Shown here in pieces: positions 10,683 through 36,162 of a stretch of DNA of 64,000 nucleotides. The stretch comes from an uncultured Gammaproteobacteria bacterium (GTDB lineage Bacteria; Patescibacteriota; Microgenomatia; UBA12405). A program made the translations under genes and the position numbers. The stretch is taken from contig CAZCYZ010000001.1 of NCBI GenBank assembly GCA_964503465.1, positions 17,583 through 81,582 on the forward strand. Direction: 5' to 3'. Position 1 is the first letter of the stretch; every line of letters starts with the position of its first letter. The notes under the pieces are model-generated. The model made no database searches. It saw only the letters and a list, made by a program, of their open reading frames with translations, and was not told where the DNA came from.

Positions 10683-10740
10683 TGGGCATGCATGGAGTCG
10701 AACCATGGACCCCTCCGACGTCACGTCGGAGTGCTCTAAC
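10683..10740 (-). pseudogene. Partial tRNA (3' portion: palindromic anticodon-arm position, T-arm, acceptor 3' strand) of a paralog of the adjacent tRNA-Ile
   Basis: The reverse complement reads gagcac-TCCGACGTGACGTCGGA-ggggtc-catgg-ttcgact-ccatg-catgccc-a. No acceptor 5' strand or D-arm is present. The T-arm is identical to tRNA-Ile at 11006..11082. Confidence 0.5.
10705..10740. repeat. 36-bp perfect direct repeat, copy A (contains a 17-bp TCCGACGTCACGTCGGA near-palindrome)
   Basis: atggacccctccgacgtcacgtcggagtgctctaac is identical to 11092..11127. Confidence 0.8.
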
Positions 10741-11005
10741 TAACAAGTTTGCAATAACCATCACGGATTATTTTATCCAGTACAATTTTAGACTTTAATT
10801 TTTTCAGTCTAAATTCGACACTTCTTGCTGCCCGTAAACTTTGACACTTTTGACTAAACACTATCCTCCACGGAATTCCGCTTTTAGTGGCTCTTACTAA
10901 TCCAAGATTATGTTGTTTATTCAATCGTCTCTCTGGATCATTCGAGCTACCTACATAATATTTCCCAGTCAAACCACTCTTTAGGACATAAATATATCCC
11001 ACCAT
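10736..11005 (-). CDS. GIY-YIG nuclease family protein (UPF0213/YhbQ-like, ~89 aa)
   Basis: GYIYVLKSGLTGKYYVGSSNDPERRLNKQHN is a GIY-YIG motif with the conserved Arg and His-Asn. The start was set at the second Met so that it does not overlap the tRNA. The stop codon lies inside direct repeat copy A. Confidence 0.65.
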   Translation of the reverse strand: MVGYIYVLKSGLTGKYYVGSSNDPERRLNKQHNLGLVRATKSGIPWRIVFSQKCQSLRAARSVEFRLKKLKSKIVLDKIIRDGYCKLVS

Positions 11006-11082
11006 TGGTGGGTGTGCATGGATTCGAACCATGGACCCTCGACTTATAAGATCGATGCTCTAACCAACTGAGCTACACACCC
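11006..11082 (-). tRNA. tRNA-Ile (anticodon UAU) with encoded CCA
   Basis: Reverse complement GGGTGTG-TA-GCTC-AGTTGGTTA-GAGC-A-TCGAT-CTTATAA-GTCGA-GGGTC-CATGG-TTCGAAT-CCATG-CACACCC-A-CCA is a full cloverleaf. Confidence 0.7.
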
Positions 11083-11091
11083 AAATTTTAA

Positions 11092-11127
11092 ATGGACCCC
11101 TCCGACGTCACGTCGGAGTGCTCTAAC
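11092..11127. repeat. 36-bp perfect direct repeat, copy B
   Basis: Identical to 10705..10740. Confidence 0.8.
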
Positions 11128-11144
11128 CACCAAGCTACATGCCC
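11093..11144 (-). pseudogene. Partial tRNA (5' portion: acceptor 5' strand, D-arm, palindromic anticodon-arm position) with its own TATAAT promoter
   Basis: Reverse complement gggcatg-ta-gctt-ggtggtta-gagc-ac-TCCGACGTGACGTCGGA-ggggtccat, then diverges. Upstream (minus strand) is ttgatataattcc 13 nt before the tRNA 5' end. Confidence 0.5.
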
Positions 11145-11260
11145 AATACTATGGAATTATATCAATTGTATCCTTCTGGTAGTATAAGTCGGGTGACTTA
11201 ATCCAAGAGAACTTTTATCGCCGTAGGCGAAATATAAATAAAGCGGATAATCGGAACAAA

Positions 11261-11304
11261 GTGACGATATAAGATCGGTGCTCTAACCACCAAGCTACAT
11301 GCCC
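11261..11304 (-). pseudogene. Chimeric partial tRNA (same 5' acceptor/D-arm as 11093..11144 fused to an Ile-like cgatcttata anticodon region) with a duplicated promoter
   Basis: Reverse complement gggcatgtagcttggtggttagagcac-cgatcttatatcgtcac. The upstream flank ttggtataattcc duplicates the promoter-like flank of 11093..11144. Confidence 0.45.
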
Positions 11305-11759: not shown

Positions 11760-11829
11760 TGCGGGGTAGTGTACGGCTGCACGTGAGGCTCATAATCTCA
11801 CAGACCTGGTTCAACTCCAGGCCCCGCAA
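11760..11829 (+). tRNA. tRNA with CAU anticodon, 70 nt (Met/fMet candidate), U1-A72 first pair and short D-loop
   Basis: tgcgggg-ta-gtgt-acggct-gcac-g-tgagg-CTCATAA-tctca-caga-cctgg-ttcaact-ccagg-ccccgca-a. It is convergent with the other CAU tRNA. Confidence 0.55.
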
Positions 11830-23668: not shown

Positions 23669-25447
23669 GTGTCGACCCAGGTTGAAGAAATCAAACAAAA
23701 GCTTGACATTGTTAATATTATTTCCCGTTATGTTCCAATCAAAAAACGTGGTCGCCATTTTGTGGCTCCCTGTCCTTTCCACTCCGAAAAAACTCCTTCT
23801 TTTATAGTTTCCCCCGAACTTCAAATTTTTAAATGTTTTGGTTGTGGAAAAGCTGGTGATATTTATAATTTTATTCAAGAATTCGAACGGGTTGATTTTG
23901 GTGAAGCCCTAGAAATTTTGGCCAAAGAAGCTGGTATTACTCTTGAACGTAGTTCTCAATCTTCCCCCGAAGTCTCCCGCCGCAAACGTCTTCTCGACCT
24001 CCACTCTCAGGTTCAAAAATTCTATCACTATCTGCTAACGTCCCACCCCTTGGGTAAACCTGCTCTTGAATACGTTCTCAAACGGGATATTACTTTGTCG
24101 ACTATCAAACTATTTGGTATCGGTTTTTCTCCCGCTAATTCCTCTCTTCTGGTCAATCATCTTCTCAAAAAAGGTTTCAAGGATTCTGAACTTATCGTTT
24201 CTGGAATTTTTGGTCGCAGCCAATACCAATCTCGTTTTTATGACCGTTTTTCCGGCCGTCTCACCTTTCCGCTTTCCGACCCTCGTGGTCAAATCCTTGG
24301 TTTTTCTGGTCGTCTTCTTCCCGGAGCTAAAAGTGATTTAGCCAAATACATCAATTCCCCCGAAACCGATCTTTATCACAAAAGTCAAATAGTTTTTGGC
24401 CTTCATCTGGCTAGGGAATCAATTAGACTTGCCGGCAAAGTAGTTGTCACCGAGGGGGAGTTTGACATGATCGCCCCCTTTCAGGCCGGTATTACTAATA
24501 TTGTCGCCCTCAAAGGCACTGCTTTTACTCTCGATCAGCTCCAGCTTCTTCGTCGTTACACTAACACTTTGGTTTTGGCTCTCGATTCCGATTTTGCTGG
24601 TTCCGCCGCCGCCAAAAGAAGTATCGAGCTAGCCGATTCTCTTGATTTTGATATTCAAGTTTTAGATCTTGGTGGCCGTTACAAAGATCCCGACGAAGCC
24701 GTTCGTGCCGATCCAGATTTTTTTAAAAATCAATTAAATAACCCTTTACCAATCTGGGATTTCTTCATCAATTCTGCCATTAAAAACTATGGCACCGATA
24801 CTGTTACCGGCAAGCGTCAAATATTAAGCGACGTTCTCCCCTCACTTGTCAAAATTACCAATTCCGTTATTCGTTCTGATTATTTTCACAAACTAGCTAG
24901 GTTAATTAATTCTGATTATGACTCGATAGTTCAAGAATCGGCCAAATACTCTCCCAGCCAAACCAAGTCTGCCACCCCAGTTACCACTAAGCCCGTTCCT
25001 GTTTCTCAAGTTGAAAAGCTTGAAGAATATCTCTTAAGTCTTGTTTTGAGCGCCAAAAAACCTCAAGTTTTAGCCAACCGTCTTCGGTCCGATCTCGTAA
25101 ATTTCACTACTACTCGATTCAAAAATCTTGTTGCCCAATTATTGGCTACCGCCAATTTCGACATCGCCACTTTTGGCTCCAACCTTCCTTCCGAGCTCCA
25201 GCCCACTTTTCAGCACCTTTATTTAGCTGGCACCAGTCAGGATTTAGAGTCCAAGGTTCGTCGCCGGGAAATCGCCCAAACCCTGCAACAACTACGGATA
25301 ATTAGTCTCAAAGATCGACTAAACTCACTTGGGGCTCAAATTGCCAACCGCGAATCTGCTGGTCCCGACGTTGATTTTTCCGATCTCGAAACAGAATATA
25401 ATCAACTTCTTTCAAAACTTTCCCAGTTACAATTAGAAAAATACTAG
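23669..25447 (+). CDS. dnaG: DNA primase DnaG
   Basis: CHC2 zinc finger [11 protein letters not shown]...[23 protein letters not shown]...LALDSDFAG. Confidence 0.85.
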
Positions 25448-25467: not shown

Positions 25468-26553
25468 ATGTCTTCCTCCCTCGACTTTACCAAGATTCGC
25501 CAGCATCTGGTTACTCTCGCCAAAAAGCTTCATTATCTTACCCACGACGAAGTTCTTAAATTAGTCCCCGAGCCGGAAAAATATATTGACGATGTTGACA
25601 ATCTTTTTGATTATCTTTTTGACAAGGGTATCGATGTTTTCGATAAAGTTGAGTCTCAAGAGCTCATTATCAGTGCTGGGTCAAAGACCAATAGTGCCGA
25701 TCTCATGGCTCTTCTAAGCCAAAAAAATAGTGTCGACTCTGTTCGGATGTATCTTAAGGAAATTGGCAAAATCGACCTGTTAACTTTTGCCGAAGAAGTT
25801 TCTTTAGCCCAATCAATCGAACGAGGTTCACCTTCAGCCCGCGAGCAACTCATTAACGCCAATCTTCGTTTGGTTGTCTCTATTGCCAAAAAATATATTG
25901 GCCGTGGTCTAACTTTTCTTGATCTAGTCCAGGAAGGTAATCAAGGCCTAATGCGAGCCGTCGAGAAATTTGATTGGAAAAGGGGATTTAAGTTCTCCAC
26001 TTATGCGACCTGGTGGATTCGTCAGGCTATTACTCGAGCTATCGCCGATCAGGCCAAAACCATCCGTATCCCAGTTCACATGGTCGAGACCATCAATAAA
26101 GTCTACAAAGCCACCAGGGCCCTAACTCAGCGTCTTGGTCACGAACCTAGCACCGATCAAATTGCCCAAGAAGTTGGCATCACTATCGATAAGGTTGAGG
26201 AAATTTATCGTATTTCTCAAGATACTACTTCACTAGCTACCCCGGTGGGGGACGACGAAGATTCATTTCTAGGTGATTTTATCGAAGACACCACCCAACC
26301 TTCTCCCTATGATGAGACCAGCAAAGAGCTACTTCGCGAATCAATCGAGGAAGTACTCGGGAGTCTTGACGAACGTGAAGCCAAAGTGCTAGCTCTTCGT
26401 TTTGGACTTCTGGGCGAAACCCCCAAAACTCTTGAAGAAGTTGGCAAAATTTTTAATGTCACTCGTGAACGTATTCGTCAAATCGAAGCCAAGGCTCTTC
26501 GTAAACTCCGTCATCCCAGCCGTCGCAAGAAATTACAAGACTATCTCGAATAA
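25468..26553 (+). CDS. rpoD: RNA polymerase sigma-70 factor RpoD
   Basis: Regions 2-4: [58 protein letters not shown]. Classic dnaG-rpoD gene order. Confidence 0.9.
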
Positions 26554-27991: not shown

Positions 27992-28012
27992 GGGCTATTC
28001 TACCACTGAGAC

Positions 28013-28279
28013 TCATTGAACTATGTCACTTTCAAATACCACTCCGGGTACTGTTATCTGTCCTATTATGTCAATAGTCTCCAGTCTGTGCCCCGTTCCC
28101 CTGGTGGTTGGGCTTCGTGGGTGATTCAGATGGCTGTTCACCGCCATTATTATCGACGCCCTGTCAGTTAGTTTCCCATAGTCATCAGCGATTACTCTTT
28201 GACAAGTAACACAATGTATTCTTCTTTGTGGTCTCCGTTCTTTGTTTTCATCTCCCATAGGTCGTATATTAGCAGACAA
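28013..28279 (-). CDS. Hypothetical protein (possible JAMM/RadC-like remnant)
   Basis: 88-aa ORF. AVNSHLNHPRSPTT weakly resembles the HxHP..S JAMM motif. Confidence 0.2.
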   Translation of the reverse strand: MSANIRPMGDENKERRPQRRIHCVTCQRVIADDYGKLTDRASIIMAVNSHLNHPRSPTTRGTGHRLETIDIIGQITVPGVVFESDIVQ

Positions 28280-28410
28280 ATGTACAAATTAGTGGCTTTT
28301 GGGTCAGTGTTATTCTATAATCAATCCTAACTTTTGCACCTTTTACAACCCACATTACTTCAGTTTTAGTTTAAAACTTCAAATTTTAAATTAAAAATTG
28401 AATAAATATT

Positions 28411-28462
28411 CCCCTGTAGCTCTCCGCCAGCTGGCGGACGGTAGAGGCTCGCCTGTTAAAAT
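28411..28462 (+). pseudogene. Partial tRNA-Asn (5' portion to anticodon loop) with a 16-bp palindrome inserted in the D-loop
   Basis: cccctgtagctc-TCCGCCAGCTGGCGGA-cggtagag-g-ctcgcctgttaa, then diverges. The intact tRNA-Asn is 310 bp downstream. Confidence 0.5.
28416..28444. repeat. 29-bp perfect direct repeat, left copy, containing the 16-bp perfect palindrome TCCGCCAGCTGGCGGA
   Basis: gtagctctccgccagctggcggacggtag is identical to 28718..28746. Confidence 0.85.
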
Positions 28463-28467
28463 TAAGT

Positions 28468-28746
28468 GTGTATATCGTTTACGCGATTTACCACCCAAAA
28501 TCAGGAAAAATCTATATAGGTCAAACAGTCGACCTAGGTAATAGATTAAGGGAACATAACGATCCTAACTGCCAGCGCCATTTATATACCAAGAGGATCG
28601 GGATCGGCTGGGAAGTTCTTTATAAGGAAACTCAGCCGACCAGACAGCTTGCCTTAAAGCGAGAAAAACAGTTAAAAAGTTATCAAGGCAGATTGTTCAT
28701 TAAAAAACACATTACAGGTAGCTCTCCGCCAGCTGGCGGACGGTAG
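28468..28746 (+). CDS. GIY-YIG nuclease family protein (UPF0213/YhbQ-like, 92 aa, GTG start)
   Basis: VYIVYAIYHPKSGKIYIGQTVDLGNRLREHN matches GIY-YIG with the conserved Arg and His-Asn. The C-terminal 9 codons are encoded by the right direct repeat, and the stop is the last triplet of that repeat. Confidence 0.65.
   Translation: MYIVYAIYHPKSGKIYIGQTVDLGNRLREHNDPNCQRHLYTKRIGIGWEVLYKETQPTRQLALKREKQLKSYQGRLFIKKHITGSSPPAGGR
28718..28746. repeat. 29-bp perfect direct repeat, right copy
   Basis: Identical to 28416..28444. It is followed by a degenerate anticodon-stem-like sequence ggcaccgcctgtaat. Confidence 0.85.
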
Positions 28747-28772
28747 GGCACCGCCTGTAATACTCAATACAT

Positions 28773-28845
28773 TCCCCTGTAGCTCAGTCGGTAGAGCGCT
28801 CGCCTGTTAAGCGATCGGTCCGTGGTTCGAGTCCACGCGGGGGAG
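28773..28845 (+). tRNA. tRNA-Asn (anticodon GUU)
   Basis: tcccctg-ta-gctc-agtcggta-gagc-g-ctcgc-CTGTTAA-gcgat-cggtc-cgtgg-ttcgagt-ccacg-cggggga-g is a complete cloverleaf. No encoded CCA. Confidence 0.8.
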
Positions 28846-28947
28846 CAAGCAAAATATATCCTAAAGATACGTAACAAATGTTTCTATGGTATGGCAAGAG
28901 TGACAAGTATATAATGTGGTTAATCAATAATTAAATTACTCAAATCC

Positions 28948-29973
28948 ATGTCTCCTCAAAAAGAAAAAATAGTTACCTCAGAACCGGATCTTCCAATTGA
29001 TCGTTTACGTTTAGCCTTCCGCCTTCAAGAAAGAGTCGAAGAAATCGACCAGGCTTTAGAAATAGCGGCACGGCCAAAGGATGTTTTAGGATTCGATGGT
29101 GCCCAGCCCGCCACCTTAAACGAGTTTCATCAACTTCGTGAAGCATATCAAGCGAGGTTGGATCAATCTCTCGCAAGTATGGATCCTTCTACTCGCGAGC
29201 AGTATGAGGCTATTTCTACGGCACGTCAGACTGCCAGAGAGGAAGAAGATAGTAGGGTACAAGCCTATCTAAAAGACCATTTTGGTGTCGATTGGGTCGA
29301 AACAGGTAGAACGCGGTTTGAGTGGAAACGTGAACATCCCCTTAATGTTGATACCGAATTGAATCCTGGTCATACCTGGGAGCAATATGAGGTAACACCA
29401 GAAGTCATGGCTGAAAAGGCTAGATTGTCTATGGAATTGTCACTCGTCTTATATGTCAGCCAACTTGCCACCGATCCCAGAGATCGTGTTGCATTTGATT
29501 TGAGCCAAGAAGCCTCTCAGGATTTACAGCGTATTTCTAAATGCCTAATGATACAAACGAATCGCATGCTGACGACTAATGGTGAGCAAAGAGACAGAAT
29601 CAGGCGGTTTGAAGATGTTGCCTGGAACTTTCGCAGAGAGACTGATGGGTTTTATCGGGCATTCGAACAAATCGCCGGAGATTCTATTTTCGAACCATAC
29701 AAGAAAGAGGAACCTCCAACAGAAGGCACCAAAATTGAGGAAGAACCTGCAGAAGTTAAATTCTATACCAGAGAATGTCCTCACTGTCAGGTTCAGTTTC
29801 ATAGCCGAAAAGCCGAGGGAAAATGCTACAATTGCACCCTTGACGAAATTACCCACGGGAATCCTCCCGAGGAAGGTGACTTTAACTCTGCCGGCATTAT
29901 ATCCGGTACACTCACAGATGAAGAGTGGAAAAATCTTCAAGCCGATCTGGCTGCAGTTGAGCTGGGTAGATAG
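28948..29973 (+). CDS. Hypothetical protein with C-terminal zinc-ribbon (CPHC...CYNC)
   Basis: 341-aa ORF. Higher GC than the flanking genome. C-terminal CxxC...CxxC. Confidence 0.4.
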   Translation: MSPQKEKIVTSEPDLPIDRLRLAFRLQERVEEIDQALEIAARPKDVLGFDGAQPATLNEFHQLREAYQARLDQSLASMDPSTREQYEAISTARQTAREEEDSRVQAYLKDHFGVDWVETGRTRFEWKREHPLNVDTELNPGHTWEQYEVTPEVMAEKARLSMELSLVLYVSQLATDPRDRVAFDLSQEASQDLQRISKCLMIQTNRMLTTNGEQRDRIRRFEDVAWNFRRETDGFYRAFEQIAGDSIFEPYKKEEPPTEGTKIEEEPAEVKFYTRECPHCQVQFHSRKAEGKCYNCTLDEITHGNPPEEGDFNSAGIISGTLTDEEWKNLQADLAAVELGR

Positions 29974-30036
29974 TTCTGCTCCCATTCTTCCATCCAAATG
30001 CTATTCTATCGGTGAGTTTTTGTGGATATAACTGTT

Positions 30037-30070
30037 TCGAATGTTCTCCATCTCGTGGAGCATTGTGACC
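30037..30070. promoter_or_regulatory. Conserved palindromic upstream motif, copy 1 (tttcgaatgttctccatctcgtggagcatt)
   Basis: Near-inverted repeat AATGTTCTCCA / TGGAGCATT about 100 bp upstream of the 30141 start. A second copy lies at 30615..30648. Confidence 0.45.
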
Positions 30071-30140
30071 TCATATTTATAAATAAATCTGTGGCGATAT
30101 ATGTTTGAATTGAAGTTGCTAAACAGTTTATAATCACCTT

Positions 30141-30590
30141 ATGAAAGATGAATCATTAGTAATTACTGATTGGGATATGGATTATGCCGATCTCTCGCAG
30201 AGGGATGAGTATGAGGAACTTAAAGCCCAAATTACTGAAGTCTACGGTACACCAGAACGTGATTCAGTAGATTGGCAAGCGTGTCTTGATGCCACGCTAC
30301 TTGCCGTTTACCGTTCAGAAGTATCTCGTTGTCAAAGTCATGTTGTATCACCACCTGGATCAGAGACGGAAGAAGTCAGGCCGGCTGTTTTGGAGTCACA
30401 TCTTCGCATCGCTGAACAAAGATTAGCGATACACCTGGATCGTGTTGATCAAAGATGCTTGCAACCAGAATATGATACCGCTTTCGAACTTGCTGGCAAA
30501 AAATTAGACAAAGTATCCGAAGGTAATCCATACGCTGATATGTTTGTTCTTGCTCACTTAGGTGCTGGGTCGGTTCAGTTGGTAAGATAA
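30141..30590 (+). CDS. Hypothetical protein
   Basis: 149-aa ORF. TATAAT hexamer ends 6 nt before the ATG (tataatcaccttATG). Confidence 0.4.
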   Translation: MKDESLVITDWDMDYADLSQRDEYEELKAQITEVYGTPERDSVDWQACLDATLLAVYRSEVSRCQSHVVSPPGSETEEVRPAVLESHLRIAEQRLAIHLDRVDQRCLQPEYDTAFELAGKKLDKVSEGNPYADMFVLAHLGAGSVQLVR

Positions 30591-30614
30591 TCTAGAATTT
30601 GGAGAGCAGTAATT

Positions 30615-30648
30615 TTTCGAATGTTCTTCGTTCCGTAGAGCATTAAGT
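30615..30648. promoter_or_regulatory. Conserved upstream motif, copy 2 (tttcgaatgttcttcgttccgtagagcatt)
   Basis: Shares TTTCGAATGTTCT...GAGCATT with copy 1. Lies ~120 bp upstream of the 30769 start. Confidence 0.45.
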
Positions 30649-30768
30649 AACACCAAAAATTCTAAAATCATTCCACTCCTCGAGCCAGCAAAATATTTCC
30701 GAAGAATACGTACATTAACTCATGACACATAGTTTAGTAGAAGTGTTGTTCACTGCTATAATCATCCT

Positions 30769-31602
30769 ATGAACATAACCGCCGACACCAAAGTCATTGC
30801 TCGTCTTCATACCAAACCCAGTCCCAGAGGTCTTAATATCTATAATCCATTCTTTCAAGAATCTAATCTCAATGCTGTCTATCTACTCTTTTTTAACCCT
30901 GACCCGGCTCCTCTTATTTCAGCCATGCGTGGGTTTAATATCGCCGGAGCCATCACAGCCGGATTTGAGTCGGATGACAGACTTCCATCTCTTTTGGATG
31001 AAGTCGATGACGTTTCTGCCTACACGGGTCGAGTCGGGTTCATCACTAATAATGGTGGGAAATTAATCGGATCATCACAAGGTGGTCAGGGATTACTAAG
31101 ATCTATCCTCAAACATGGCCATATTGAAAATAAGAAACTTGTTATAGTCGGTTCTGGCAATATCGCCAAAGGATTGTTGTTTAACATAAAAAAACAGTTT
31201 CCTGATCCTCCCGAAGTAGTTCTAGTTAACCGCACAATTGAAAAGGCGCTATCCATTCAAAGAGATTTTTCATTTGTCACTTCCACCAAGTCAGTCACTG
31301 ATCTGTCTACCGAAACTGGTGATATTTTAGTTAATGCTACTGATATTGGTGGCAGTCAAGCTGACGATGTTTACACCGAATCAATCGTTGGCAACTTTCA
31401 GACGATAGCCGATGTCACTTTTGAAACCGAGAACACTAATCTGGTTAATCTGGCTAAGAAATTGAATAAACAATTCTCAACCGGCTGGGATATGTTTGCT
31501 TATCAAGGCCAGGTTATTCTCGAAAGTATCTTTCATACAGGCATTGATATTGGTTCGCTCAGAAAGCATGTTGTAAGTGGATTATCAGAAGTTGTTTCTT
31601 AG
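30769..31602 (+). CDS. Shikimate/quinate 5-dehydrogenase-like protein (AroE family)
   Basis: N-terminal substrate-binding domain resembles the AroE family. NAD(P)-binding region has VIVGSGNIAKG (Rossmann glycine motif) and VNRT...DILVNATDIG. Confidence 0.55.
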   Translation: MNITADTKVIARLHTKPSPRGLNIYNPFFQESNLNAVYLLFFNPDPAPLISAMRGFNIAGAITAGFESDDRLPSLLDEVDDVSAYTGRVGFITNNGGKLIGSSQGGQGLLRSILKHGHIENKKLVIVGSGNIAKGLLFNIKKQFPDPPEVVLVNRTIEKALSIQRDFSFVTSTKSVTDLSTETGDILVNATDIGGSQADDVYTESIVGNFQTIADVTFETENTNLVNLAKKLNKQFSTGWDMFAYQGQVILESIFHTGIDIGSLRKHVVSGLSEVVS

Positions 31603-31644
31603 TTTATGCCCGTGTAATTTAGGCATTCGATAGCTAATCAACAT

Positions 31645-32757
31645 ATGTCCGAGAATCCTCAGTCAATAGTCAGTCGAGAAAAACCACCAGTTGACCTATT
31701 GGCCGACGAAGTTGTCAGATTAAGAGAATCACTCGAAAGACGTGGCGAACAATTGGGTTTTTCCAACATCCTAGCTTTGTCTTATGTTGTCGAACTTTAT
31801 TCTAGCGTTAATGGTCAACAATCCCTAGTGGAGTGGTTTCGTGACCCAAAATCTGACGAAGAAATTTTTACTCTTCAACAATCAGTGGACTTAGGACATG
31901 TACTCGAAAATGCCAATAGGTTATCGGCCATTCATGGGATAACTCCTCCTCCGTTATCTACCGATCTTACTGTTCCCCAAGATCAATTGGCTATTCCCAG
32001 GACACCCGCCCAAGTTGATCAAGAGATTCTCGATGCTACTGAAACCTTACCCGGTGAACGTCTAATTACCCTTTTTCGCTATGTTGATACCGTTGGTTGG
32101 AGAGATGACACCCAGTCCATGGAGCCAGATGAGATTAGATCATTTATGGATGAACCGTCTAATCAGGTAATCAATCACGCTCGAGGCTTACGATTTCCCG
32201 TGGCAAGTATTGAGGACGCTCGAGGCATTAGACATGAATCGTTATTTGCTCTTAGCCAGCTAATTACATATCCAAGATTTGTTTTGGATAGAACTGATGA
32301 TGTTGTTTATTCCGGATTAGTCAATGAACCAAGACACCTTGACATCCTTCGTGAACACTTACTCCTCTCGGAAAGGGAGTCACTGGCTCGCTCTGTTCAA
32401 AGGGCTGACAAAGTTGTTGCTTTTACCTCCGCATCAGTTGGTAGTCAAGGTCTATGTAATTGGGGATTTTTTTGTATTGAAATGCAGGTCCCAGAGAGAT
32501 TAATTCTCAATGTTCGAGACTTGTGTATTCAGGGCGATGAAGTTATGGGTGACAACGATGGAGTTGATCCGGACACACGACAGAGACTATCACTCTCAAT
32601 TCATTCCTACCCACCTCCACTAGAAACTTATCAAAGTGTTGGCGGTATTCACCTAGACGAAATGGCTGTTCTTGGGGGTATTAGGCGAGAGTGGGTAAGG
32701 TCTGTCATCGACATTAGGGACCAATCAATTGTGTGGCAGAAATCGTCAGACAAGTAA
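31645..32757 (+). CDS. Hypothetical protein
   Basis: 370-aa ORF with no recognised motif. Confidence 0.4.
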   Translation: MSENPQSIVSREKPPVDLLADEVVRLRESLERRGEQLGFSNILALSYVVELYSSVNGQQSLVEWFRDPKSDEEIFTLQQSVDLGHVLENANRLSAIHGITPPPLSTDLTVPQDQLAIPRTPAQVDQEILDATETLPGERLITLFRYVDTVGWRDDTQSMEPDEIRSFMDEPSNQVINHARGLRFPVASIEDARGIRHESLFALSQLITYPRFVLDRTDDVVYSGLVNEPRHLDILREHLLLSERESLARSVQRADKVVAFTSASVGSQGLCNWGFFCIEMQVPERLILNVRDLCIQGDEVMGDNDGVDPDTRQRLSLSIHSYPPPLETYQSVGGIHLDEMAVLGGIRREWVRSVIDIRDQSIVWQKSSDK

Positions 32758-32842
32758 TTTTCTATCTACCCCTTGCTGTGTCGTTGTTCGTCCAAATATA
32801 ATACGATTATAGCCTATAACATGATATAATCCCATTCATATT

Positions 32843-33484
32843 ATGCCCGTAACTATTGAACAAGTTGGCCATGCTTGGGATGGTCTGACTGCCGAGGATC
32901 ATGCTTATGGTCAAATTGTCGCCACTGGTATGGCCGCTATCCTTGAATCGCGTGGATATGGTCATGATGCCGGGCCAATTTGGCAAACCATTGGTGTCAG
33001 TCAGGAAGTTCAACTTAGACTTGACCCACAGGAGACATTTACTAGGGCAATTGAGTTAGTTATGTTGAATGATGGTGGCGATCCCGACTCTCAACAGTTT
33101 GTTCAATGGCTTCAGGGCAATGGCCTTCAACAACTTACCGATCCTCGATTGACGCCTTACCTTGAACCTTATCTTGCTACTTCTGACAGCACCCCGTTTG
33201 TTAATCGACTTCTAAGTTTTGTCAATCATCCCATTCCTTATGATCAAATATCTACCAAGCACGACCTTGGCTATTTTCCTCAATGTTACCTAACCTTTAT
33301 TTCTGTCCTACTCGCTTCACGTCTTAGTGGTGCTGGCAACACCGAGTTGATTACTCGCCTTAGGGAAGCATCATCAGAATTACTCACTACTCCTGACTTT
33401 CAAAGAATTGTTGGTCTCTATGCTACTATTACCGACACTCGGCAATTTGCCGAACAATTATCAATCTCTACATTTAATGCCTAA
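32843..33484 (+). CDS. Hypothetical protein
   Basis: 213-aa ORF. A TATAAT lies 14 nt upstream of the ATG. Confidence 0.4.
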   Translation: MPVTIEQVGHAWDGLTAEDHAYGQIVATGMAAILESRGYGHDAGPIWQTIGVSQEVQLRLDPQETFTRAIELVMLNDGGDPDSQQFVQWLQGNGLQQLTDPRLTPYLEPYLATSDSTPFVNRLLSFVNHPIPYDQISTKHDLGYFPQCYLTFISVLLASRLSGAGNTELITRLREASSELLTTPDFQRIVGLYATITDTRQFAEQLSISTFNA

Positions 33485-34010
33485 AGATCGTTTATATGGC
33501 CTTCCCGTACGTACTAAGGTCGTCAAAATAACTCAAGGTTGGCACGGTCCGTTTAGTCATCAGGATCTCGGCGGTGGTCGAACAGATATGACCTTTGCTG
33601 TTGATTTTAGTGCCGAAGAAGATACCCCGGTTGTAGCCGCCAGAGCTGGTAAACCCAGAATTGTTGTCGATCATCACCAAAGCCACTACGAAGGTGATGA
33701 CCCAAAAATAGGTTTAGCCGTTAACACCACCAATCTGGTGATTATCGAGCATCGAGATGGCACCGAAGTGGAATATACAGTCTATTCTCACCTTAAGCCA
33801 GGCAGTGTGCCAGAAAAAGTTAAAAACGGACAAATGGTTGATGAGGGAGAACAAATAGGTCTATCTGGAAAAAGTGGTTGGGTTCCTGTGCCCCATGTTC
33901 ATTTCCAGGTTTTGTCTCGTAAATCTCCAGATCAAAGATTAAGAAGTCGCCCAGTACGTTTTAGGGGTTATAACGGTCCACTGGAAGACGATAAGATTAG
34001 AGGAAAATAA
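33480..34010 (+). CDS. M23-family (lysostaphin-like) metallopeptidase domain protein (start uncertain; the annotated ORF starts at 33408)
   Basis: HQDLGGGRTDMTFAVDF, GEQIGLSGKSGWVPVPHVHFQV. HxxxD and HxH are typical of the M23 family. Confidence 0.55.
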   Translation, partial: PKDRLYGLPVRTKVVKITQGWHGPFSHQDLGGGRTDMTFAVDFSAEEDTPVVAARAGKPRIVVDHHQSHYEGDDPKIGLAVNTTNLVIIEHRDGTEVEYTVYSHLKPGSVPEKVKNGQMVDEGEQIGLSGKSGWVPVPHVHFQVLSRKSPDQRLRSRPVRFRGYNGPLEDDKIRGK

Positions 34011-34044
34011 CATCCTTATAACATTTCAAATGCTATAATTACCC

Positions 34045-34350
34045 ATGACCATTGAAGCTACTAAACGCCAAATCGGTATATCTAGGGTCTTTGATGTCTT
34101 AGCCAAAGTCCATATTGAAAAACATTTACCAGGAGAGGTTCCGGTACTACGTCAACTACAGTGGGAAAACCCAGGGTCTGCCGATGCTAGATTGTTAAGT
34201 ACAGTTATTACCTTAAGACAACAAGGCAAAATGCCCGATGCTCGCACTATGTGGGCTGATGCAGAGAGAATGTACGATCTGCCTGTCGATAGACAAGGAG
34301 ATGCTTATCTTGCTTACCACCAGAGAGTATTTAGCGATCAATCAAAATAA
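34045..34350 (+). CDS. Hypothetical protein
   Basis: 101-aa ORF. TATAAT ends 6 nt before the ATG. Confidence 0.35.
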   Translation: MTIEATKRQIGISRVFDVLAKVHIEKHLPGEVPVLRQLQWENPGSADARLLSTVITLRQQGKMPDARTMWADAERMYDLPVDRQGDAYLAYHQRVFSDQSK

Positions 34351-34355
34351 TAATT

Positions 34356-34844
34356 ATGGCAAAAACTGAATTTGCATCTGAACTACGTCGATTAACTGAG
34401 AAACATGGACCAAAACTTGGCCTAAAGCCGAATGAAGTTGTTGGTGCGGTTATGGTTTGGCCGTCTAAAGCGGACATGCGACGATTTCAGGAAGGCATAC
34501 CGGAAGAATTATTAGCCCTCAAGGAGCTTAAGGCCGTTCAAGAAACTGGACAAGTCGTTGCTGAATTAAACGCTGGCAATATCCCACTTACTCGAGAACA
34601 AATTCAAAGGCTATCGCCACGAAGAGGAGTTGGAATTCGTATTCTTTGGAGTCTAAGTACTGGCGAGGATACTGCCACAATAAATGAAGAATTGGATGGT
34701 GGTACTAGACGAGGTATCAGAACTCGAGTTCTCACTGATACAGAAAAACAATCAGTCGGTATTCTCGATGACGTTGTTACCGTCACTACCCTTCGATTAC
34801 GTCCTGATAGTCCTATTCTTAGAAAAGTCAAACCAGCATCTTAA
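34356..34844 (+). CDS. Hypothetical protein
   Basis: 162-aa ORF, 5 nt after the previous stop. Confidence 0.35.
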   Translation: MAKTEFASELRRLTEKHGPKLGLKPNEVVGAVMVWPSKADMRRFQEGIPEELLALKELKAVQETGQVVAELNAGNIPLTREQIQRLSPRRGVGIRILWSLSTGEDTATINEELDGGTRRGIRTRVLTDTEKQSVGILDDVVTVTTLRLRPDSPILRKVKPAS

Positions 34845-34958
34845 AAATTTCATCCACACAATGACTGAAAAAACCCAATGGTTATTTGATAGAAGTAAAT
34901 TAATGCGTGGTGCATCTCCAGTTACTCTAGAGGTCGAACTTACCCCCCAGAACTGGCT

Positions 34959-35240
34959 TTGTTAGAAGAAATTCGGGCCCTCGAAGATAGTCCTGAAGTT
35001 GGCCACAGTGTTGCTTCGGGTTCTGGATATATGAGGCAGTATGAAACAGAAAAACGAGCCCCCTTTGGTTATCGTTTGACCAGACCAAGGGGAGAGGTTT
35101 TGGCTGACGCCAGAGCCAGTCGTGATTATCTTCGTCAAAATCTCGCGGGAATTGATAGACAGTCATCTGAATGTTCTACTCAAGTTAGGGGAATCATCTC
35201 CAGACTAAACAAAGTGCTTGGCGAGGAAGAAGATAAATAA
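34959..35240 (+). CDS. Hypothetical protein
   Basis: 93-aa ORF. Weak. Confidence 0.25.
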   Translation: MLEEIRALEDSPEVGHSVASGSGYMRQYETEKRAPFGYRLTRPRGEVLADARASRDYLRQNLAGIDRQSSECSTQVRGIISRLNKVLGEEEDK

Positions 35241-35301
35241 TCCGTCACCCACTTCCTCATACCTGTACTATTCATTCGGGGGAGCCCAGTATAATATACT
35301 C

Positions 35302-35727
35302 ATGAAACGTGTCATCTCTGCCGGTGGAATAATCACCAAAATAGAAAACGATCAGCTCAAGATTTGTCTTGTCCGATTAAGACCTCCAATGAAGGGTTAT
35401 GTTTTTCCCAAAGGTCATGTTGAATTGGGTGAAACTTATGAACAAACTGCCCTCCGAGAGGTGGCCGAAGAAACCGGATTGTCTAATTTAACTATCAAAC
35501 AGAAGTTGGGCGTTGTTCAAAGACAATCAACTGAAAACGACGGCACTCAAGTGACTAAGAATATTCATCTTTATTTGATGACTACCGATAGTTTTCAGCA
35601 TAACCAATCAGACGAAAGATATGAATGGTTTACTATTGACGAGGCTCTCAAAGCTCTTAATTTTATTGAAGAAAAAGAGTTCTTATTCAAAAACAGAGAT
35701 CAAATTTGCGACTCCGATCAGCTCTAA
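35302..35727 (+). CDS. NUDIX hydrolase
   Basis: Nudix box GHVELGETYEQTALREVAEETGL (GX5EX7REUXEEXGU). The start was taken at MKRV, with a TATAAT ending 8 nt upstream. Confidence 0.7.
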   Translation: MKRVISAGGIITKIENDQLKICLVRLRPPMKGYVFPKGHVELGETYEQTALREVAEETGLSNLTIKQKLGVVQRQSTENDGTQVTKNIHLYLMTTDSFQHNQSDERYEWFTIDEALKALNFIEEKEFLFKNRDQICDSDQL

Positions 35728-35750
35728 ATCTCCACCACTCCCCGAGCACC

Positions 35751-35787
35751 AAAAATCCCCTCCATCACGGAGGAGATTTTAGTTTTT
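35751..35787. terminator. Bidirectional intrinsic terminator
   Basis: aaaaa-tcccctcc-atcac-ggaggaga-tttt, lying between convergent genes. Confidence 0.45.
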
Positions 35788-35799
35788 GTAAACAGAACT

Positions 35800-36162
35800 T
35801 TACTGGCTGTTGTTCATTCCACAACCTCTACCACTCCCATTTCCTCGCCCCATTCCATATTTGGCTCTAAAAGCATTCAATAGGGTAGGGTCACCTTTTT
35901 GAGCCGTCAGTTGAGCTGTCGCAAACTCTTTGAAGTTAGATTCGTTGACGAATCGAGTGGCACCACGTCCGGCCATATTGGCGACCCAGGCTTTGTAATC
36001 ACCTTTTTGAAAGGCAGTCACGTTGACAGTGTGTCTGGCTTCTGTGTAATTAGGGCCACGAACTGTGGCATCACCACGATAAGCAAGAACCGGGGCAAAT
36101 GATTTAACAGCTACTAAGCCCAGTGCTATCGCGGCGATACCAAGAGCAATTTGAGTTTTCAT
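35800..36162 (-). CDS. Small secreted hypothetical protein
   Basis: Signal-peptide-like N-terminus MKTQIALGIAAIALGLVAV. Gly/Arg-rich C-terminus. Confidence 0.35.
   Translation of the reverse strand: MKTQIALGIAAIALGLVAVKSFAPVLAYRGDATVRGPNYTEARHTVNVTAFQKGDYKAWVANMAGRGATRFVNESNFKEFATAQLTAQKGDPTLLNAFRAKYGMGRGNGSGRGCGMNNSQ

Follow-up and report, generated by a model that had tools for sequence, protein, structure and literature searches.

A GIY-YIG nuclease gene and a 16-bp hairpin at tRNA-Asn genes of Patescibacteria: a candidate homing-type cassette

Closest described systems and the window locus

The closest published systems to the element described here are SegB of phage T4, the group I introns that interrupt tRNA-Asn genes of the candidate phyla radiation (CPR), and the CPR rRNA insertion sequences. 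SegB is a GIY-YIG homing endonuclease encoded in a tRNA gene cluster, and two sources describe its preferential inheritance by break-induced gene conversion and its driving of segmental amplification (PMC2330249, PMC13096335). The CPR introns were reported by Nakagawa et al. in 2026, in a text in which a search found no mention of GIY-YIG (PMC13011429). We analyzed a stretch of 64,000 nucleotides (nt), termed the window here, from a genome whose best named RpoD matches identify its host as Candidatus Shapirobacteria. At the tRNA-Asn locus of the window, the gene of a small GIY-YIG nuclease lies between a dead 5' fragment of tRNA-Asn, interrupted by a 16-bp palindrome (the hairpin [HP]), and an intact tRNA-Asn gene (Table 1). 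With moderate confidence, we favor the reading that this is a homing-type selfish cassette in tRNA-Asn of Patescibacteria (CPR), in which HP inactivates the old tRNA fragment and probably serves as the nuclease's own site. Searches of the full-text literature, which covered the HP sequence itself but not subscription-only papers, gave no description of the cassette.

The cassette resembles T4 SegB, which belongs to the Seg/Mob family, in that a GIY-YIG gene is located among or next to tRNA genes; its tandem units are the counterpart of the segmental amplification caused by SegB, and an equivalent of the preferential inheritance is proposed below. Seg proteins have about 200 to 250 amino acids and carry DNA-binding modules. 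The cassette protein, in contrast, is a catalytic domain of 82 amino acids, and its gene is chromosomal in CPR, overlaps the tRNA, and is accompanied by a conserved hairpin. The CPR tRNA-Asn introns (PMC13011429) share the host gene and the clade with the cassette, but they are found at position 35/36 inside a functional tRNA, mostly without endonuclease genes, whereas the cassette lies upstream of the tRNA and is ribozyme-free. Integrase-mediated tRNA islands also insert into a tRNA gene, regenerate the gene, and leave a displaced tRNA fragment; unlike in such islands, no integrase is present here, the duplicated piece is the 5' part, the payload is only ∼300 bp, and the displaced fragment always contains the hairpin.

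Most of what a sequence-only reading of the locus had put forward proved accurate. The 29-mer GTAGCTCTCCGCCAGCTGGCGGACGGTAG occurs in two exact copies (28416 to 28444 and 28718 to 28746), with no match in 100 shuffled sequences. Both copies contain the perfect palindrome TCCGCCAGCTGGCGGA (28423 to 28438 and 28725 to 28740), which has no further copy in the 64 kb and folds into a hairpin with a 6-bp stem and a loop of 4 nt. The left copy lies within a 5' partial tRNA-Asn, in which HP interrupts the D-loop between nt 1 to 13 and nt 17 to 38; the latter part has one base deleted, and its likeness to tRNA stops past the anticodon loop. Two relatives (L001 and L263) have nt 17 to 38 arranged as in the window. 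The open reading frame (ORF) of 92 codons with its GTG start and GIY-YIG domain, the supply of its final nine codons (GSSPPAGGR) and stop by the right repeat, and the intact tRNA-Asn downstream were borne out as well, and units of this kind recur in this genome and in hundreds of others. The proposed insertion into a copy of a D-loop had to be recast: the hairpin does lie in a D-loop, but this D-loop belongs to the 5' end of the original tRNA-Asn gene, which still stands behind the native promoter and of which nt 1 to 13 are the remnant, and the ORF has this fragment on one side and a regenerated tRNA on the other. The intact tRNA-Asn, identical in sequence to the tRNA-Asn of L263, is the functional gene, regenerated 3' of the cassette.

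An ORF ending at a downstream repeat had also been taken as the design of the element. This did not hold, since ORFs of the family end on a TAG inside the intact tRNA and the right repeat is absent from the nearest relatives, L263 and L259 to L262 (nuclease protein identity to the window, 78% and 73%, respectively). These relatives carry a canonical single unit, in which the TATAAT promoter, the leader, tRNA nt 1 to 13, HP, and tRNA nt 17 to 38 (ending in TGTTAAAAT) are followed by an ORF that ends in ..IPL and overlaps the intact tRNA. In the window, a cccct-to-acag change peculiar to this genome shifted the frame, so that the ORF reads through a second, ORF-less unit and gained the tail SSPPAGGR. 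Given this frameshift and the lack of the right repeat in the nearest relatives, the position of the ORF between two repeats is a derived state. ORF-less units were also found elsewhere (L029, L057, L080, L056, L013, and L011), as were two full units in tandem (L048 and L072). The ORF-less units of L029 and L080 have ∼17 nt just 5' of the tRNA in common with the 3' end of the preceding ORF, which points to tandem duplication followed by internal deletion, and some homologous proteins hold two matched stretches, consistent with fused tandem units. From the similarity of the spacer in front of the window tRNA to the end of the ORF, we infer that this spacer is a deletion remnant. As part of the homing-type reading and with the same moderate confidence, the window locus is best described as a resident cassette copy plus a decayed second copy. 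In the predicted fold of 28711 to 28761, HP is enclosed by an 8-bp outer stem (ATTACAGG/CCTGTAAT; z = −4.55). Half of this outer stem arises from the frameshifting acag change, and the structure is compact as DNA or RNA.

Occurrence, occupancy, and the encoded nuclease

RpoD was used as neighbor marker, and the site was taken from five relatives with RpoD 86 to 91% identical to that of the window. The dnaG-rpoD-...-tRNA-Asn site is empty, with neither a GIY-YIG gene nor HP, in L264, L265, and L266 (RpoD identities of 91%, 86%, and 87%, respectively). It is occupied in the window, in L267 (with a nested HP), in L001 (RpoD, 88%), and in L003 (RpoD, 84%), and L268 has a tRNA-Asn with an intron and no cassette. 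The tally at the site is three empty, four occupied (the window counted), and one with an intron only; the comparison of relatives with and without the unit that the sequence-only reading had called for thus yielded both states. Presence/absence polymorphism at one conserved site, as expected of a free-standing homing endonuclease, is therefore found at rpoD-tRNA-Asn, while a separate DNA-binding domain, also expected of such an enzyme, is lacking. In the empty sites of L264 to L266, the motif TATAATc..cctgatct/gcaccttttacaa is located 35 to 130 nt 5' of tRNA-Asn. In the occupied sites of L001, L259, and L267, the same native promoter motif precedes the left fragment, showing that the left fragment is the old 5' end of the gene. 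Compared to the empty site, the net insert consists of HP, tRNA nt 17 to 38, the ORF, and tRNA nt 1 to 13, placed between tRNA positions 13 and 14. Either of two routes would produce it: a D-loop break that is repaired by copying an occupied allele, or the entry of a circular form by one crossover within nt 1 to 13. The patchiness among close relatives, together with the presence at other tRNAs and under other phylum labels (see below), argues for gain and loss of the cassette as opposed to a fixed host feature.

Homologues of the window nuclease numbered at least 275, mostly from named Patescibacteria; 367 loci were confirmed in species-representative genomes, and 1,244 clusters (50% identity) were obtained at E ≤ 1e-10. 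The following architecture counts refer to 80 related loci that were retrieved. Up to 110 nt upstream of the start codon, the canonical HP is present in 70 loci and an HP-like hairpin (TCCGCC-loop-GGCGGA type) in 77, mostly inside a dead 5' fragment of tRNA-Asn that belongs to the host itself. ARAGORN predicted a tRNA overlapping the ORF 3' end in 49 loci (46 Asn, 2 Lys, and 1 Arg). In 7 further loci, the tRNA is located within 320 nt downstream, with extra units intervening, and another 15 have a tRNA D-arm motif at the ORF end without a tRNA call. Counted together, 71 loci have an ORF that leads into a tRNA, for the most part tRNA-Asn, with a TAG of the D-arm as its stop. The ORF stops at one of two positions in the tRNA. 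Either the tRNA begins 9 nt before the ORF end, with U8-A9-G10 (nt 8 to 10) as the stop codon and I-P-x as the C terminus, or it begins 20 nt before the ORF end, with the TAG of GGTAGAGC (nt 19 to 21) as the stop codon and ..VAQR as the C terminus; these two positions explain the C-terminal variation of the aligned proteins. Other tRNAs next to the cassette are tRNA-Lys, -Arg, and -Met, and some of the records that contain it are titled Thermodesulfovibrionales, Bacteroidia, Ignavibacteriae, WOR-3, and Hydrothermota. Chance or artefact was discarded as an explanation, as the shuffled sequences gave no matches and the architecture recurs in assemblies of many projects.

At least 17 of the 80 contigs end within ∼400 nt of the cassette, among them L002, L003, L010, L011, L025, L030, L031, and L033, as well as L039, L053, L063, L065, L068, and L070; this suggests that repeats or strain heterogeneity break assemblies at the cassette. 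Some of the loci without a tRNA call are likewise cut by contig ends. The cassette explains recurrent trouble in the annotation and assembly of CPR genomes, namely, pseudo-tRNA fragments at tRNA-Asn, contig ends, and overlaps of ORFs with tRNAs.

In seven loci without a tRNA call (L012, L013, L020, L032, L051, L052, and L067), a group I intron (Rfam RF00028) follows right after the ORF. Intron scores at cassette loci and at L268:8010-8200 are 59 to 88 bits, and ARAGORN misses the tRNA-Asn in these loci because the intron lies inside it. Cassette and group I intron hence coexist in one tRNA-Asn gene, with the intron in the downstream tRNA. These introns, those reported in CPR tRNA-Asn (PMC13011429), the serine-recombinase islands that abut the tRNA-Asn 3' end in L264 to L266, and the tRNA fragments, which are typical of integration scars, could be taken to mean that the cassette is the remnant of a degenerate group I intron with a homing-endonuclease gene, or the att-site scar of an integrase-borne island. 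We consider either origin very improbable: a search of 28000 to 29200 for Intron_gpI gave no ribozyme match at E values up to 5, by which identity with a group I intron was rejected; the introns, where present, are inside the downstream tRNA, apart from the cassette; neither the cassette, with its single ORF of 92 codons, nor the ten downstream ORFs tested contain an integrase; and the duplicated piece is the 5' part of the tRNA, not the 3' part, and always bears HP.

The nuclease matches Pfam family PF01541 (48.7 bits versus a cutoff of 22.6; E = 9e-13), and Y5, Y16, G18, R26, H30, and E66 are invariant in an alignment of 32 sequences. The active site is thus intact, and nuclease function is predicted. 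Residues 1 to 83 form the conserved domain, while residues 84 to 92 are the frameshift-derived read-through of the right hairpin. An AF2 model (pLDDT, 90.7) shows the GIY-YIG fold with its three-stranded sheet and flanking helices in the order E-E-H-H-E-H-H, with residues 85 to 92 below 50 and predicted to be disordered. Among Shapirobacteria copies, dN/dS is 0.10 to 0.17, with synonymous sites near saturation, indicating purifying selection on the ORF. The closest solved folds (Foldseek, E ∼1e-2) are Slx1, its plant homologue HIGLE, the UPF0213 protein BH0048, and the catalytic domain of I-TevI; by sequence, the nearest proteins in a profile search are the UPF0213 proteins EF2693 (1ywl; E = 6e-5) and BH0048 (1zg2; E = 6e-4), a distant relation. 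Slx1 is a Slx4-dependent nuclease that acts on branched DNA in repair. The cassette protein has the size of the UPF0213 proteins, to which we know of no assigned function, and its similarity to Slx1 and UPF0213 is weak. No curated family model supporting a UPF0213-like assignment passed, the NCBIfam model grpIintron_endo scored below its cutoff (24.4 versus 56 bits), and no link of UPF0213 to tRNA or to a hairpin was found in the literature examined. The minimal domain is the one described by Dunin-Horkawicz et al. in 2006, who took Slx1-like domains that stand alone in prokaryotes to be the minimal and ancestral form (PMC1564403). A phage origin was not supported, as IMG/VR gave merely partial matches to the N-terminal GIY-YIG motif and no full-length relative; nor was a role as a defense system, for which PADLOC gave marginal matches and PHROGs a match to the N-terminal motif alone.

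The position of the ORF, and this only, implies that it may be co-transcribed from the tRNA promoter. The motif TAnnnT has a peak exactly 6 nt before the start codon (17 of 71 loci; 26 of 71 for distances of 4 to 8 nt, versus 8.3 in shuffled sequences). In the window, a −10-like box contributed by the anticodon loop is a possible promoter of a leaderless mRNA; a strict two-hexamer scan of the window locus found no promoter. An ORF with the same orientation as the tRNA that it overlaps, located 3' of the native promoter and under purifying selection, would also suit a domesticated host module, that is, a cellular factor co-expressed with tRNA-Asn that acts, for example, in repair or maintenance of the locus or in RNA processing. 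The HP-bearing 5' fragment would then be a regulatory or RNA-stabilizing leader (an operator, a 5' stem-loop, or an RNase P block), for which the operator-like position of HP just upstream of the −10-like box speaks, and a fusion of GIY-YIG with TrmH (tRNA G18 methylase) has been noted among prokaryotic Slx1-like proteins (PMC1564403). We regard such a module as improbable, given that the cassette is patchy even among relatives with RpoD 86 to 91% identical, that some of its copies are in tandem, truncated, or frameshifted, that it also adjoins tRNA-Lys, -Arg, and -Met and is present under the labels of other phyla, and that HP in protein genes would find no place in it.

The hairpin, its dispersal, and the proposed mechanism

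In most loci, HP replaces nt 14 to 16 of the tRNA (AAT in 13 cases, AGC in 11, and AGT in 6); other replacement sites are nt 9 to 11, nt 22 to 24, nt 15 to 17, or longer stretches. The stem TCCGCC/GGCGGA is essentially invariant next to ORFs with nearly saturated synonymous sites, while the central four bases vary (AGCT, 68; AACT, 6; AGCC, 6; AGTT, 5; GGCT, 4), and some loci not labeled as CPR have three-base loops. Double changes that preserve pairing were found in L011, L031, L045, and L077 (TCCGCTGGCCAGCGGA, TCCGCTGTACAGCGGA, CCCGGCAGCTGCCGGG, and TCCGTCAGCCGACGGA), variant hairpins include TCCGCTGG.., CCCGGCAG.., and TCCGACGTGACGTCGGA, and HP is nested inside HP in L026, L051, L042, and L267. 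This pattern fits strong constraint on a stem-loop, or else on a symmetric protein site whose center is free, and is compatible with DNA as well as RNA. Two simpler explanations of HP were rejected. It is not built around local D-loop bases with a centrally kept AGC, since the loop stays AGCT in the 13 loci where the host D-loop has AAT, and it is not a fixed −35 element, since its distance to the −10-like box ranges from ∼11 to 25 nt and the strict promoter scan of the window was negative.

A scan of metagenome contigs found HP in at least 120 stretches; the counts given here are those among the matches listed (L139 to L258), and the label CPR-like for these contigs derives from GC content and sample type. 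Ninety-nine occurrences are in contigs with a GC content of ≤0.50, although base composition favors high-GC DNA ∼50-fold for this 16-mer, and 57 of the 99 low-GC copies are located in stop-free ORFs of ≥120 amino acids. HP is free of stop codons in all six frames and is translated as PPAGG, (I/V)RQLA(D/E), or SASWR. Host proteins read from the sequence are RecG, SecA, topoisomerase I (twice), SMC, DNA polymerase I, TsaD, the C-terminal tail of DnaK (two copies), FolC, and the CCA-adding enzyme, and comparison with solved structures confirmed RecG, TopA, and TsaD. The HP position coincides with a 4-residue insertion in TsaD versus Escherichia coli and with a 3-residue net insertion in TopA; in RecG, HP lies within a stretch that is shorter overall than that of T. 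maritima. At the tips of preexisting inverted repeats (≥3-bp extension), HP was found in 5 of 96 cases, versus ∼1.5 expected; insertion always at existing hairpin tips was rejected, as these are a minority. Matches to HP in IMG/VR (55 in total) had no tRNA flanks and were near chance level.

Several single loci deserve mention. In L080:562-577, HP lies inside a methionyl-tRNA formyltransferase gene (..LQPEIRQLADDEF..), 1.4 kb from a GIY-YIG cassette; compared with the E. coli Fmt sequence, the length is presumably unchanged. The order in L151:3536-4475 is tRNA-Trp, a GIY-YIG gene of a different subfamily, and an ORF with an in-frame HP (..FRPPAGGLLE..); judged by eye, this ORF may encode a tryptophanyl-tRNA synthetase. 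L193:12520-12641 contains an ORF-less unit with a 36-nt insert directly after rpoD, and in L220 (reverse complement, ∼185 to 400; contig GC content, 62%), one dead tRNA-Asn copy contains two HPs.

REP/RAYT systems (REPtrons) also have a dispersed short GC-rich palindrome, copies of which flank the single gene of the enzyme presumed to mobilize it, and a corresponding relation is proposed for HP and the nuclease. Flanking palindromes are present at the cassette, and HP is dispersed in metagenome contigs, with none elsewhere in the 64-kb window. However, the enzyme here is GIY-YIG and not HUH/Y1 of the IS200/IS605 kind, and REPs are species-specific, intergenic, and abundant, whereas HP has the same sequence in many lineages, is sparse, and frequently lies within genes. 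HP, though not the window locus, further resembles Rickettsia palindromic elements (RPEs), which are selfish palindromic DNA that is tolerated in RNA genes and, in frame, within essential protein genes; RPEs measure ∼100 to 150 bp and have no associated enzyme, whereas HP measures 16 bp and is linked to a nuclease.

These likenesses lead to a tentative alternative, which we hold to be possible but doubtful, in which HP is the mobile unit and the GIY-YIG protein its dedicated structure-specific nuclease. One HP would be kept at its own gene, with copies spread or maintained genome-wide and tRNA-Asn serving as a safe harbor. HP adjoins 77 of the 80 nuclease genes, yet most of the metagenome copies listed are far from such a gene; the low-GC copies run against the compositional bias and are frequent in ORFs; HP is stop-free and marks an insertion in TsaD; it nests in its own loop (L026, L051, and L267) and is overrepresented at inverted-repeat tips; locus 1 of the window (see below) pairs a different nuclease with a different hairpin; and the nearest fold is that of Slx1, a branched-DNA nuclease. 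On the other side, we know of no mechanism by which a GIY-YIG nuclease would copy a 16-bp sequence, the window contains no HP outside the locus, and tandem duplication alone explains the identity of variant hairpins within a locus (L011 and L077). Taken to its end, this doubtful alternative would turn the pair of HP and minimal GIY-YIG nuclease into a mobile system of a new class, with the nuclease gene parked in a tRNA gene. A hairpin-specific, Slx1-like nuclease might then spread a stop-free 16-bp palindrome across the genomes of a bacterial superphylum, and HP might enter hairpin loops (tRNA D-loops, its own loop, and terminator tips) as well as essential protein genes, in frame and in surface loops that become PPAGG or RQLAD. 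It overlaps with the homing-type reading, and the two could be complementary.

In the homing-type reading that we favor, the nuclease gene would be transcribed with the tRNA precursor, a −10 box of its own perhaps giving rise to a leaderless mRNA in addition at some loci, and translation would end on the TAG inside the tRNA D-arm. The Slx1-like, structure-selective product would break the D-arm region of the tRNA-Asn gene DNA in a cassette-free allele, and repair would copy the cassette from the occupied allele, with left-hand homology supplied by tRNA nt 1 to 13 and right-hand homology by the remainder of the tRNA. HP, probably the nuclease's own binding hairpin, would deprive the dead fragment of the substrate and of an uninterrupted direct repeat, thereby providing immunity and stability. 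Renewed cutting of the resident tRNA and misaligned repair would give rise to tandem units, and internal deletion would produce ORF-less units like the right repeat of the window. Under this reading, the geometry of the insertion and the regeneration of the tRNA are explained, as are the existence of both empty and occupied sites, the units in tandem or in decay, and the selection that acts on the ORF. Because the stop codon is inside the tRNA, RNase P cleavage at tRNA +1 is predicted to leave a non-stop mRNA, which, if formed, could be a built-in brake on nuclease dosage.

A number of observations count against homing. The protein is a catalytic domain alone (family members, 82 to 88 amino acids; ORFs of the 80 loci, 82 to 92), without the C-terminal DNA-binding module from which known GIY-YIG homing enzymes derive their specificity, and the intact tRNA-Asn persists beside the gene with the presumed target undestroyed, unlike in classical homing. 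Both HP flanks match the host's own tRNA-Asn, host-specific anticodon-stem bases included, which suits duplication in situ or concerted evolution equally well as, if not better than, import from another genome, and the pattern of empty and occupied sites could be due to loss instead of gain. A GIY-YIG gene of this kind is nearby in only 3 of the 120 HP stretches listed, so that HP insertion is maybe a separate process, and dead tRNA-Asn copies with HP but no GIY-YIG gene within 700 nt exist (L193 and L220). Target finding by an 82-amino-acid domain, tolerance of the intact tRNA, the host-specific HP flanks, and the entry of HP into protein genes are not accounted for.

If the homing-type reading is true, ∼300 bp with an 82-amino-acid catalytic domain and a 16-bp hairpin would be the smallest self-contained homing-type cassette, and a nuclease without a DNA-binding domain could gain specificity via DNA structure or a cognate hairpin, which would matter for enzyme engineering and for the question of how homing endonucleases arose from Slx1-like repair nucleases. 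The cassette would join group I introns and recombinase islands as a third selfish occupant of tRNA-Asn. HP in SecA, TopA, RecG, TsaD, and other proteins would represent testable intragenic selfish DNA in the most reduced genomes, similar to RPEs but ten times shorter.

Locus 1 and neighboring features

Table 1 Features of the window loci and of HP-containing protein genes in metagenome contigs
Feature	Position	Strand	Remarks
dnaG	23669-25447		Upstream of cassette
rpoD	25468-26553		Upstream of cassette
TATAAT box, native tRNA-Asn promoter	28316-28321	+	Motif match; followed by conserved leader motif ..cctaacttttgcaccttttacaa
tRNA-Asn nt 1-13 (acceptor 5' strand, U8-A9, D-stem 5' strand)	28410-28422	+	13/13 identical to 28773-28785
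Left HP (TCCGCC-AGCT-GGCGGA)	28423-28438		In place of D-loop nt 14-16 (AGT)
tRNA-Asn nt 17-38 (D-loop 3' part, D-stem 3' strand, anticodon stem and loop)	28439-28459	+	Compared with 28789-28810
TGtTAAAAT, extended −10-like box from anticodon loop	28454-28462	+	Consensus only; ends 5 nt before GTG
GIY-YIG nuclease gene	28468-28746	+	GTG start, 92 amino acids, Pfam PF01541
ORF-less unit: tRNA-Asn nt 7-13 (gtagctc), HP (28725-28740), diverged nt 17-38 (cggtagggcaccgcctgtaat)	28718-28761	+	
Spacer actcaatacat	28762-28772	+	Between ORF-less unit and tRNA; resembles ORF end ..aacacat
Intact tRNA-Asn(GTT)	28773-28846	+	ARAGORN; Rfam tRNA, 64.8 bits; 26 nt past ORF stop
Locus 1	10683-11304	−	tRNA-Ile fragments, intact tRNA-Ile(TAT), GIY-YIG ORF
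Promoter and tRNA-Ile-like fragment A	11304-11268	−	
Promoter and fragment B	11144-11092	−	Hairpin TCCGACGTGACGTCGGA at 11117-11101 replaces anticodon arm
Intact tRNA-Ile(TAT) (GGGTGTG..)	11082-11006	−	
Locus-1 GIY-YIG ORF	11005-10736	−	ATG directly after CCA of tRNA
3' fragment C	10740-10683	−	Hairpin TCCGACGTGACGTCGGA again (10730-10714), in place of anticodon arm
HP in SecA gene	L149:1116		
HP in TopA genes	L169:2527; L142:8677		
HP in RecG gene	L247:2101		
HP in TsaD gene	L143:2687		
HP in SMC gene	L212:1490		
HP in PolA gene	L197:5108		
HP in DnaK tail	L214:2184; L214:2226		
HP in FolC gene	L217:4804		

A second GIY-YIG locus of the window, locus 1, had been described as having the same design as the tRNA-Asn locus. 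The trio of tRNA fragment, TCCG...CGGA hairpin, and GIY-YIG ORF does recur there, but locus 1 is a mirror-image variant. Its hairpin TCCGACGTGACGTCGGA has a 7-bp stem and a 3-nt loop, its ORF stops on the TAG of the tRNA D-arm motif gTTAGagc, and the two window nucleases are only weakly alike (phmmer, 1e-4). Mirror-image loci were also found in L009 and L024, where an intact tRNA is followed by a 3' tRNA fragment with HP replacing nt 39 to 46; in L024, the ORF lies between the two, the order that locus 1 shares. The locus-1 nuclease had four homologous matches only, too few for an analysis of hairpin/protein co-variation; one of them, L081, has no tRNA. L082/L083:1486-1900 combines an intact tRNA-Thr(GGT), a distant nuclease of the locus-1 type, and a duplicated tRNA-Thr 3' fragment without a TCCG..CGGA hairpin, so the arrangement of tRNA, ORF, and tRNA fragment is broader than the hairpin. 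Fragments A and B of locus 1 are copies of the promoter and 5' part of a tRNA-Ile(UAU)-like gene (GGGCATG..) that differs from the intact tRNA-Ile(TAT), which may have been brought in by the element. It is unusual that the genome encodes a tRNA-Ile with the anticodon TAT.

Downstream of tRNA-Asn, the sequence-only reading had noted a distinct block of unknown genes, in agreement with two results. The GC skew shifts at ∼28 to 29 kb, from strongly negative to about zero just past tRNA-Asn (28900 to 36000), and 6 of the 10 largest ORFs tested between 28.9 and 38.8 kb have no Pfam match, including the first two (28948 to 30587). The remaining ORFs of this set match Shikimate_DH (weakly), Peptidase_M23, NUDIX, and ArsP_1 permease, and none of the ten encodes a recombinase. 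The block is possibly an island.

The large serine recombinase genes that abut the tRNA-Asn 3' end in relatives (L264:6208-7734, L265:5442-7052, and L266:3800-5290) have methylase, Vsr, restriction, or unknown genes as neighbors and belong to a third, unrelated mobile element at tRNA-Asn. Elsewhere in the window, an unusual tRNA-Met of 70 nt (11760 to 11829) is encoded on the opposite strand near another tRNA-Met.

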